From: Escherichia phage HP3
Sequence record: NC_041919.1
Strand: one strand, 5' to 3'
DNA: 64,000 bases
A model generated the notes under the pieces. It searched no databases and had not been told where the DNA came from. It worked only from the letters and a program-made list of their open reading frames with translations. Position 1 is the first letter of the stretch, and each line of letters starts with the position of its first letter. A program made the translations under genes and the position numbers. Below, piece after piece: positions 3,506-29,207 of this stretch.

Positions 3506-4156
3506 TTAATAATAGCCGAAATCTTGAACAGAATCCTTAATTACGATTTGGTCAAATCGTGGAACGTGTGAAGGTTGAGATGCAGGATTCTGTGAAAAAA
3601 GGTTTGGCGCAGTTAAATTTCCTGTCATAGTGTCTCCAGAGCGTAATACCCTAGAGTTTGCATTTGCTGTAACAGTATTTATTGCTCCATCAACATAATC
3701 TTTGCGAGTAACATCAGATGCTGCGGAAGGAGTAGATGTAACAGTTACCGATGGAGCCGTTACAGCCCTGGTAAATGTTGTCAAACCTTCTGGCGTAATA
3801 GTAATTTGTCCAGTAGTGATTTCACTACCTGCTGGTCTAAAACTAATACCGCCAGAAGAGCCACCAACTACAAGAGTATTACCAGTGCCGCCACCAGAAC
3901 GAATTCGGATGGGGGTTTCATTATTACTTAATTGAAGATAACTATTTACCCCGTAATTAATAGTAATTGGACCGGTGTAAGTACCACCATTAGCTTTAGA
4001 AACGAAATCGTTATCAGCTGCCTGCGGTTTATTATATTCTGAATATATTTTAAATGATTTGTAGAGTACATCGTCACCGGCTGAATTCAATGGAAAATTT
4101 CCTTGATGCCAAATGACAGATCCACCTACAGTTGAACCTACTTTTAAATCAGCCAT
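3506..4156 (-). CDS. 36: gp36 long tail fibre distal connector
   Basis: 216 aa; [24 protein letters not shown]... and C-terminus ...[18 protein letters not shown] match T4 gp36; synteny 35-36-37. Confidence 0.9.
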
Positions 4157-16056: not shown

Positions 16057-16376
16057 TAATTGAGGCCTAGGTATAAGGTGACTTATACTTGTAATCTATC
16101 TAAACGGGGGACCTCTCTAGTAGACAATCCCGTGCTAAATTGTAGGACTACCCTTTAATAATTTCATCAGGATTAGTTACTTACCGTGTAAAATCTGATA
16201 AATGGAATTGGTTCTACATAAATGCCTAACGACTATCCCTTTGGGGAGTAGGGTCAAGTGACTCGAAACGATAGACAACTTGCTTTAACAAGTTGAAGAT
16301 ATAGTCTGATCTGCATGGTGACATGCAGCTGGATATAATTCCGGGGTAAGATTAACGACCTTATCTGAACATAATG
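16057..16376 (+). ncRNA. group I self-splicing intron in td, lacking a homing endonuclease ORF
   Basis: Starts TAATTGAGGCC..., ends ...CTGAACATAATG with terminal G; conserved td-intron core segments (GGTGACTTATACTTGTAATCTATCTAAACGGGG, CCCTTTGGGGAGTAGGGTCAAGTGACTCGAAACGATAGACAACTTGC, CATGGTGACATGCAGCTGGATATAATTCCGGGGTAAGATTAACGACC); 320 nt, no ORF >= 60 aa in any frame. Confidence 0.85.
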
Positions 16377-28347: not shown

Positions 28348-28494
28348 TATAAATAATAATATGAATTGGGTGTCGGAATAATAAGTTAACCGAACAATTC
28401 TATGTGGTAGTCTACAACTGAGAGATCTGTCGAAAGAAGATGAAATTCAGAAGAACGTGACTACCGAGTTTTAATCTCTAACGAGAATTTTTAA

Positions 28495-28743
28495 ATGATT
28501 AAACAATTACAACACGCTCTTGAACTGCAACGAAACGCATGGAATAATGGTCACGAAAACTATGGCGCATCTATTGATGTTGAAGCCGAAGCTCTTGAAA
28601 TCCTGCGTTATTTCAAACATCTGAATCCTGCTCAAACTGCATTAGCTGCTGAGCTTCAGGAAAAAGATGAACTTAAATATGCTAAGCCTCTGGCTTCTGC
28701 TGCACGAAAAGCAGTTCGTCACTTTGTGGTAACATTGAAGTAA
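28495..28743 (+). CDS. rIII: rIII lysis inhibition accessory protein
   Basis: 82 aa; MIKQLQHALELQRNAWNNGHENYGASIDVEAEALEILRYF... matches T4 RIII. Confidence 0.85.
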   Translation: MIKQLQHALELQRNAWNNGHENYGASIDVEAEALEILRYFKHLNPAQTALAAELQEKDELKYAKPLASAARKAVRHFVVTLK

Positions 28744-28987
28744 TTTATTGGAGATTCACTGCCTTAGTGTGAGCTAAATCGAGGAGCCGTCGAACTGTCT
28801 GATTAATGATTTGCGAATCATTATAGTTTTAAGACCCCGGCAGTTTTACGGTGTACCTCTTGAATGTGAATGATGACGGGTTTATGGTTATCCTGGTCGT
28901 TAAATATCCAAAAACCTATGTTCCCCTTGAGGGCTTGCGCAGGCAATGCCAATAAGTCCTGCATTTTCATTTAAAAGAGAATTTATA

Positions 28988-29164
28988 ATGGCAAAACAAG
29001 CTAAAGCAAAGAAAGCAGTTGAAAAGAAAGTTGGTGATTCTAAACGCGCTGGCTACAAGCGTGGGTCGAACTCTCGTATCAATCAAACTGTTGAGAAGAT
29101 CATGCGCCGAGCACGTGCGGTTCTTCGAGATGATGCTTCTCGTTTTGGTAAGCAGAAAGCATAA
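28988..29164 (+). CDS. hypothetical small basic protein
   Basis: 58 aa from ATG 28988 (ORF track starts at 28946); Lys/Arg-rich; followed by a strong terminator. Confidence 0.45.
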   Translation: MAKQAKAKKAVEKKVGDSKRAGYKRGSNSRINQTVEKIMRRARAVLRDDASRFGKQKA

Positions 29165-29169
29165 GTTGA

Positions 29170-29194
29170 GGACTCCTTCGGGAGTCCTTTTTTA
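29170..29194 (+). terminator. rho-independent terminator
   Basis: GGACTCC-ttcg-GGAGTCC hairpin followed by TTTTTTATTTT. Confidence 0.8.
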
Positions 29195-29207
29195 TTTTCC
29201 AAAGATT

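Follow-up and report, generated by a model that had tools for sequence, protein, structure and literature searches.

ToxI is a 36-nt repeat RNA (AGGTGATTTGCTACCTTTAAGTGCAGCTAGAAATTC) that serves as the antitoxin of the type III toxin-antitoxin and abortive-infection system ToxIN (PMC8610362). A short non-coding unit of this kind, pseudo-ToxI, lies between genes of the virulent myovirus phiTE of Pectobacterium, for which a compensatory U9C/A25G pair has been described and the 9-25 pair documented (PMC3475682). To date, functional descriptions of RNA antitoxin mimicry are limited to phiTE. Plasmid-borne toxIN strongly restricts T2, T4 and T6, and T4 escapes through a protein, TifA (PMC9391042; see also PMC10853763). 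Structured phage RNAs that travel with tRNA genes are known from T4 as well, namely the stable species rnaC and rnaD (species 1 and 2). The T7-type RNase III hairpins and the HK022 put RNAs are irregular intergenic hairpins of 60-90 nt that act on the transcript whatever its neighbour. T4-type phages also carry mobile regulatory cassettes, the PeSLs, which reportedly consist of an early promoter and a stem-loop (said to be described by Arbiol et al. in 2010). RNA anti-CRISPRs are solitary phage-borne copies of a host immune RNA repeat that act as decoys.

We analysed a window of 64 kb (the whole stretch of 64,000 nt taken from Escherichia phage HP3, NC_041919.1), which is 100% identical to HP3.1 and 99.6% identical to T4 (T4-type phage). 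As an earlier note on this DNA had pointed out, rIII is followed by a long non-coding gap: the rIII stop ends at 28743 and the ATG of 30.9 lies at 28988, leaving 244 nt. T4 has an equal 244-nt gap between rIII and 30.9, with no annotated feature in the T4 records NC_000866 and AF158101; although no phage has been studied better than T4, its reference records leave this conserved region without annotation. The claim that neither strand holds an ORF of at least 60 aa is right for 28744-28945 (202 nt) and fails beyond, where an in-frame upstream ATG at 28946 gives a 72-aa version of 30.9. In the 64-kb window, just one internal ORF-free stretch is longer than these 202 nt, namely 16060-16373, which belongs to the td group I intron. 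The latter stretch is the 3' catalytic part of that intron (Rfam Intron_gpI, 70.3 bits) and already known. On the other side of rIII, the gap behind gene 31 (28348-28494, 147 nt) is likewise ORF-free and has the late-promoter motif TATAAATA at 28348-28355. The relative GC richness ascribed to the rIII-30.9 gap is weak (40.2% vs 36.2% for the window, with rIII at about the same 40.6%), and the gap as a whole folds with an ordinary energy (z = -1.6 for the + strand and -0.95 for the - strand). The small basic ORF at its end is 30.9 (58 aa, 28988-29164), and it is indeed followed by a strong terminator (stem-loop 29168-29189 and a T run).

Table 1. Features of the rIII-30.9 region, with positions in the window
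Feature	Position	Strand	Basis or remark
rIII CDS (upstream gene)	28495..28743	+	ORF list, T4 annotation
Whole rIII-30.9 gap, 244 nt, modules 0, A and B	28744..28987	+	unannotated in T4 reference records
Module 0, putative diverged single ToxI-like unit, TGGAGATTCACTGCCTTAGTGTGAGCTAAAT	28749..28779	+	22/32 to ToxI_Pa; positional orthology
Module A, rod-shaped hairpin RNA	28781..28859	+	covariation, model R1
Module A, helix P0	28781-84/28856-59		
Module A, helix P1	28786-90/28848-52		
Module A, helix P2	28792-99/28839-46		
Module A, helix P3	28804-11/28816-23		
P3 hairpin (noticed earlier), 8 bp, tetraloop UGCG, apical tip of A	28804..28823	+	
Junction, extra hairpin modules in other T-evens	28860..28869	+	T2 44 nt, SHFML-26 154 nt
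Module B overall	28871..28972	+	sequence conservation
B1 hairpin TGATGAC-GGG-[TTTATGGTTAT]-CCT-G-GTCGTTA, then AAAT	28871..28902	+	MFE and RNAalifold
B2, CCCC-TTGA-GGG	28923-33	+	
B3, GCAGG-[CAATGCCAATAAGT]-CCTGC	28939-62	+	followed by U-rich tract 28963-72
Gene 30.9, 58-aa basic protein (downstream)	28988..29164	+	ORF list, T4 annotation
Strong intrinsic terminator, likely 3' end of gap-bearing transcripts	29168..29198	+	terminator scan

Module blocks (0, A and B; Table 1) were delimited by eye in an alignment of the gaps of relatives. The locus resembles that of phiTE in having a short, apparently ToxI-like non-coding unit (module 0) between two genes of a virulent myovirus; relatives share the U9C/A25G pair at the rIII-30.9 locus (PMC3475682), and phiTE has a homolog of module A in the same non-coding region as its pseudo-ToxI. 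Unlike phiTE, with 1.5 repeats (4.5-5.5 in its active escape loci), the window has one unit, whose 22/32 match to ToxI_Pa is not significant directly, and T4 counters ToxIN with the protein TifA. Module A is, like rnaC and rnaD, a structured phage RNA that travels with tRNA genes, and rnaD homologs adjoin it in Vequintavirinae; rnaC and rnaD, however, are known stable species, and module A has no sequence or model similarity to them. It also differs from the T7 RNase III hairpins and HK022 put, with which it shares no sequence similarity, in its long invariant loops and in crossing phage families. As short non-coding modules shuffled between T4-type genomes at gene boundaries, the blocks are comparable with PeSLs, but no promoter was found in the gap and module A extends beyond the T4 family. 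Unlike in RNA anti-CRISPRs, the type I-F repeat stem is not kept in module 0, and there is no Rfam CRISPR-DR match. The reading we prefer, at a rough probability of 0.35, is that the gap modules are accessory counter-defence RNAs of the pseudo-ToxI kind.

The gap is best explained as a transcribed non-coding "RNA cassette" region, neither a spacer nor a dead ORF. Stop codons occur in six of six frames, and 1-nt indels between close relatives, such as CCTGGTCG vs CCTGTCG and CCAAAAACC vs CCAAAACC (T4-type vs Mosigvirus-type), break every frame, so the gap is not a decayed ORF. The earlier idea of a decayed gene thus fails for a remnant of a deleted ORF and may hold in part for a decayed RNA gene, in that the first ~31 nt look like a decayed ToxI unit. 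Small ORFs of 34-49 aa, called in the gap in some records, are ruled out by the same frame-breaking indels. Some records call spurious ORFs in the gap or start 30.9 at 28946; annotators should refrain from placing spurious small ORFs in gaps of the rIII-30.9 type, a practice seen in several records.

Among T-evens, the length of the gap varies through gain and loss of modules between 120 and 398 nt (EcNP1 120, VIPECOOM03 194, S16 204, T4 244, T2 288, IME08 327 and SHFML-26 398 nt). The modules are gained, lost and reordered independently: EcNP1 has module B only (without 0 and A), RB69 and PNJ-9 are without module 0, VIPECOOM03 and S16 are without the tip of module A, and the order in the Klebsiella Jiaodavirus UTI-K1 is B1-like, module 0, a 154-nt block, B2 and a different B3. 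Even so, conservation is higher in the modules than at the third codon positions of rIII: the modules are 91-100% identical between genera in which these positions are 51-71% identical. Compared with S16, rIII is 73% identical (third codon positions 51%) and B1-B2 91%; compared with IME08, rIII is 84% identical (third positions 67%), module A 97.5% and B1-B2 94%.

An Rfam search, which the earlier note had proposed, matched no family: the Rfam 15 covariance models gave no match at E ≤ 10 in the gap, nor in related gaps. A tRNA search (ARAGORN) of the window and related gaps found none, a 14-mer scan of genome contigs gave chance matches only, and the literature we searched holds no description of the rIII-30.9 gap region. 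Likenesses of module 0 to the type I-F and of B2 to the type I-E CRISPR repeat, and of P1 (AGCCGU/ACGGU) to domain V of group II introns, found no Rfam match and were dropped.

That the gap encodes an independent small RNA with its own promoter and terminator is not borne out, as consensus scans find neither in the gap; by eye, it contains no T4 late motif (TATAAATA) and no clear MotA-type motif. The gap is therefore presumably part of rIII-30.9 transcripts. A study of rIII and 30.9 expression, reportedly by Driukas and Nivinskas in 2003, may be relevant here.

The perfect hairpin that had first drawn attention (TAATGATT-tgcg-AATCATTA, 28804-28823) exists, with 8 bp rather than 7 and a start one base earlier than described. 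Perfect 8-bp hairpins number 26 in the window vs ~13 in shuffles, and this one alone is not beyond chance; its significance comes from covariation. It is the apical helix (P3) of a larger conserved hairpin, module A, with conserved internal loops, an invariant GGAG and strong covariation on the + strand, which supports the suggestion of a structured RNA. We registered by hand 15 distinct module A sequences from Tequatrovirus, Mosigvirus, Dhakavirus, Gaprivervirus, Vequintavirinae, Kuravirus and Justusliebigvirus (alignment A2). The four-helix rod P0-P3 has 27 pairs with 98.4% of cells paired in A2, which was fitted by hand to this structure and favours it somewhat, the freedom used being a 2-bp extension of P2 only. 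The covariance analysis across related phages that had been suggested revealed compensatory changes, with both sides changed, in 12 of the 27 pairs (in P3, in four of eight). This level was reached by none of 500 shuffles, and slid partners give at most two such pairs. Two G·U pairs are invariant and others are wobble intermediates; read from the opposite strand, the invariant ones would become C·A, which assigns the structure to RNA of the gene (+) strand.

The covariance model of module A (R1) gives 96.6 bits for the window's module, which is the single copy in the 64-kb window, and finds no paralogs in the window or the T4 tRNA region. It detects the phiTE copy, which is outside its training set, with 38.9 bits (E = 3.4e-7). 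The tip is different in phiTE and missing in S16 and VIPECOOM03, and the helices amount to ~25 bp in four stacks in the long form and ~12 bp in these two short forms; the basal part (GGAGC...CGAA / UUUU...GGUGUACC, then CUUG) is always kept. The hairpin noticed first is a dispensable cap, and the conserved core of module A is its base. Purifying selection acts on module A as a structured RNA, with compensatory changes across lineages. There is no Rfam family for it, nor any description in the literature searched.

Further matches to the gap were detected with blastn in the Vequintavirinae A5-4 and W70, and taking the A5-4 region as the next query brought in Justusliebigvirus muut and Kuravirus PGN6866 and MN03. 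Module A is found in T-even phages, Vequintavirinae (including phiTE), Kuravirus and Justusliebigvirus, often beside tRNA genes. In T-evens it follows rIII, or module 0 where that is present. In Kuravirus it is a presence/absence insertion of ~97 nt upstream of terL (present in SU10, PGN6866 and XT18, absent in phiEco32), bounded by the microhomology AGGGAG / AGGGGAG. Justusliebigvirus muut has a 98% T4-like copy of the whole gap and the rIII 3' end inside its tRNA array. From these varied genomic settings we conclude that module A is accessory, independent of gene context and spread by recombination at microhomologies. A scan of metagenomes with the non-T4 module A pattern found only two Kuravirus-like contigs, and blastn of modules A and B against E. 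coli genomes and plasmids (up to E ≤ 10) turned up nothing but chance matches within coding genes.

The muut insert (~1967-2312 of the extracted locus) lies between tRNA-Gly and tRNA-Gln and joins the gap to the rIII 3' end in circularly permuted order. It is bounded by a 13-nt direct repeat (TTTATTGGAGATT), the last 8 nt of which are the 5' end of tRNA-Gln, and looks like a capture of T4-like DNA by microhomology recombination.

A close rival to counter-defence RNAs, and a possible explanation in its own right, is that module A (perhaps also B) is a cis-acting transcript element, either a processing or stability hairpin for RNase III/E or a put-like read-through RNA. T7 RNase III sites and HK022 put are elements independent of gene context, as is module A. 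The stacking of the module A helices to ~25 bp with small internal loops would suit such a role, an RNase III hairpin calling for a nearly uninterrupted helix of about two turns, and the module is always on the transcribed strand, at sites where a transcript must continue or be processed. In A5-4, W70, A73 and LTH01 it is located in the non-coding leader of the tRNA region, between a sigma-70-type promoter (TTGACA-17-TAAGAT) on the upstream side and the first tRNA on the downstream side; in this A5-4-type leader, a weak tRNA-like sequence, tRNA-Met and a T4 rnaD homolog follow immediately. In phiTE it has the equivalent place just upstream of tRNA-Cys, 1.3 kb upstream of the annotated pseudo-ToxI ncRNA (by eye, the TTGACA upstream of it looks like a promoter element, which the scan did not call). 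The Kuravirus copy is directly upstream of the intrinsic terminator before terL, and that of the window is upstream of 30.9 and its strong terminator. However, RNase III needs no invariant loop sequences like those of module A, the short forms of S16 and VIPECOOM03 retain ~12 bp only, and module A resembles no Rfam family.

The ToxI link behind the counter-defence reading is made by clear single ToxI units that Gaprivervirus, Mosigvirus and Klebsiella phages carry at the rIII-30.9 locus. Tested directly, the similarity of the window's module 0 to ToxI is not significant: it has 22/32 identity to ToxI_Pa, and the z of its local alignment to ToxI is 1.6, vs 11.7 for UTI-K1, 9.2 for Mosigvirus FP43 and 6.0 for PSD2001. 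A covariance model (R2) built from authentic toxI, phiTE, Kuravirus, Klebsiella-phage and Mosigvirus units gave 27.9 bits for Gaprivervirus PSD2001 (E = 0.011), 12.3 bits for T2 (E = 7.3) and no match at E ≤ 10 for the window's unit. The latter has the same flanks as the PSD2001 unit and, in a count made by eye, disagrees with it at 3 of 33 positions, and identity to ToxI_Pa is graded from Mosigvirus (28-29/32) through Gaprivervirus (26/32) to the T4 type (22/32). Judged from sequence, the window's module 0 can be regarded as a ToxI relative by transitive, positional orthology only. Rfam misses an authentic toxI array too, having no working ToxI model, and its null result is therefore uninformative on ToxI.

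Pairs 9-25, 10-24 and 11-23 of the unit are kept (C-G, A-U and C-G) through two double changes. One is U9C/A25G, which is also present in the module 0 series at this locus; the other leads from G10-C24 through G·U (PSD2001) to A-U (T4 type). The pseudoknot pairs 10-24 and 11-23 and the stem 2-4/13-15 are those that we infer, and pair 4-13 of this stem is broken in the window (A·G), with further pairs broken in some T4-type and muut-type copies. The window has a single unit without tandem repeat, compared with 5.5 repeats in authentic toxI; what follows it resembles the start of a second ToxI repeat only in AGGAG, with which module A begins. At the ToxN-contact nucleotides C27/U28, GCUA is kept after a 1-nt insertion, and of the AA^AU cleavage sites expected at the unit borders, module 0 has AAAU at its 3' border (28776) and none at its 5' border. 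Module 0 may be read as a decaying relic in the T4 lineage, where the ToxI-like unit is probably no longer active. As T2, T4 and T6 are restricted by toxIN, the T4-type unit is not an effective antitoxin alone; the 1.5 repeats of wild-type phiTE are likewise not. We rejected the idea that a ToxI-like unit lies behind the tolerance of RB69 to toxIN, as RB69 is without module 0. Also rejected was a pairing of module 0 with the B3 loop, seen in the MFE structure, which is not kept in Mosigvirus and Gaprivervirus and would require a module that is often absent.

A single ToxI unit of ~91% identity is present in 162 Klebsiella phage records and, in the one record examined (the T4-like UTI-K1), lies at the rIII-30.9 locus. 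Single ToxI-like units were also detected in Kuravirus, Salmonella, Erwinia, Yersinia, Vibrio and Salinivibrio phages, and in Kuravirus XT18 terL stands between module A, ahead of it, and a full ToxI unit behind it. As a kind of RNA, pseudo-ToxI is already known; the units of T-even relatives at the rIII-30.9 locus add new members. If the ToxI-like copies of Klebsiella, Mosigvirus, Gaprivervirus, Kuravirus and other phages are functional, the mechanism would be widespread. Dozens of small plasmids from enterobacteria carry toxI arrays (at least 95% to ToxI_Pa), with 75 matching records in all, 49 from E. coli.

In XT18, the terL-portal gap (332-557 of the extracted locus, minus strand) contains GAAATTC, the complete ToxI unit and then an intrinsic terminator. 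The "pseudo-ToxI" repeat of phiTE (AGGTGATTCGCTACCTTAAGTGCGGGACGAAAATC, 1501-1559 of the extracted locus) is nearly identical to authentic toxI repeats on the E. coli IncX4 plasmid pU90-1, whose array (898-1041 of the extracted locus) is directly upstream of a ToxN/AbiQ-family toxin gene. There may thus be a second ToxIN subtype to which the phiTE mimic is the cognate antitoxin.

If the modules are counter-defence RNAs, the gap would be transcribed within rIII-30.9 messages ending at the terminator (29168-29198), and the modules would fold on their own. The A/U-rich linkers, two of them with AAAU, would be likely nuclease entry points and could release the modules, each of which would act as a decoy or mimic titrating an RNA-binding or RNA-cutting host protein. 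The putative protein-binding site of module A is its base (GGAGC / CGAA / UUUU / GGUGUACC, with the invariant G·U pairs). We favour this reading because of the patchy, accessory-like distribution of the modules, their independence of gene context and the recurrence, in three lineages, of ToxI-like units and tRNA genes alongside them. The ToxIN target is also common in hosts (toxI arrays, 75 enterobacterial plasmids). On the other side, module 0 is a single unit with broken-pair variants and not significant directly, plasmid-borne toxIN restricts T2, T4 and T6 with T4 escaping via TifA, modules A and B have no detectable E. coli genome or plasmid counterpart to mimic, the positions of module A (operon leader, pre-terminator) fit a cis role equally, and module B shows no covariation.

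A broader form of the proposal, which we consider doubtful, is that T-evens and unrelated enterobacterial phages exchange a toolkit of small RNAs, each neutralising a different host defence protein, so that the gap would be an anti-defence island. This toolkit would comprise the ToxI-like units, module A, B1 and the 154-nt module, with module A as a possible new class of decoy, an assignment that is equally doubtful. Module A is a well-supported structured RNA without an Rfam family; at least four phage lineages share it, and its neighbours include tRNA genes and ToxI mimics. The results as a whole suggest that phage tRNA regions may be broader RNA counter-defence loci.

The junction between modules A and B holds extra hairpin modules in other T-evens (Table 1); the insert of IME08 is related to that of T2 and slightly longer (range ~44-50 nt), and the 154-nt module of SHFML-26 recurs in the Klebsiella Jiaodavirus UTI-K1. 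This block of 135-154 nt (SHFML-26 ~625-780, UTI-K1 ~610-745 of the extracted loci) is found in many T-evens. It shows signs of structure, namely a closing stem and a hairpin UCGA-GAAA-UCGA that becomes CCGA-UAAA-UCGG, and has no Rfam family.

Within module B, the B1 sequence hardly varies between genera and is found behind module A in the Vequintavirinae A5-4 and LTH01 as well; its hairpin plausibly presents UUUAUGGUUAU. In S16, the B3 stem is replaced by GAACTGG/CCAGTTC with the loop CAAUGCCAAUAAG kept. RNAalifold on module B detected no covariation (term 0.03), with little variation present, and prefers another fold for the 3' half; the terminator scan did not call B3 and the U-rich tract (14-nt loop). 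What can be claimed for module B is strong sequence conservation and no more.

The place of module B next to 30.9 bears on the suggestion that the gap is a leader of the small basic ORF, that is, a 5' leader or translational operator possibly bound by the 30.9 protein itself, which we hold to be unlikely. The T-even gap is always directly upstream of 30.9, B3 and the U-rich tract adjoin its ribosome-binding site, and 30.9 is small and very basic. However, module A occurs without 30.9 in Kuravirus, Vequintavirinae and Justusliebigvirus (the tblastn matches listed for 30.9 are all in Straboviridae-type records), and Klebsiella phages have 30.9 without module A: in Jiaodavirus the protein is 93% identical, with no module A and a different B3. 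EcNP1, moreover, is without modules 0 and A. This distribution led us to reject 30.9 as an obligatory partner; a regulatory role limited to module B would survive the present evidence. Many records name 30.9 "1,4-alpha-glucan branching enzyme, GH-13-type", which is implausible for a basic protein of 58 aa that matches no Pfam family.

That the gap is functionless debris of horizontal transfer, made of relics of ToxI and tRNA-cluster RNAs joined by illegitimate recombination between co-infecting phages, is a distinctly remote prospect. Insertions bounded by microhomology (the muut repeat TTTATTGGAGATT; AGGGAG / AGGGGAG in Kuravirus), the dispensability of the modules in some phages and the apparent decay of module 0 in the T4 lineage would be expected of debris. 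Relics would not, however, be held by compensatory changes with 98% of module A cells paired in at least four lineages, be more conserved than the synonymous sites of the neighbouring gene, or keep an invariant basal sequence even where the tip is replaced (phiTE). A DNA-level signal (a 30.9 promoter, a replication or recombination site or a homing-endonuclease target) is very improbable: it would agree with the conservation of module B without covariation and with the region being an insertion hotspot, but the promoter scan of the gap finds no promoter-like site, and the invariant G·U pairs and wobbles of module A make sense only for + strand RNA.

Homologs of rnaD (species 2 RNA) are present in the tRNA regions of Vequintavirinae, with a shared core GGGTCGCTACC..AAGTCGTCGGACTGA. 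In the extracted loci, A5-4 has two copies (2840-2940 and 3740-3850) and phiTE one at ~1370-1480, and the T4 sequence lies at 2054-2172.
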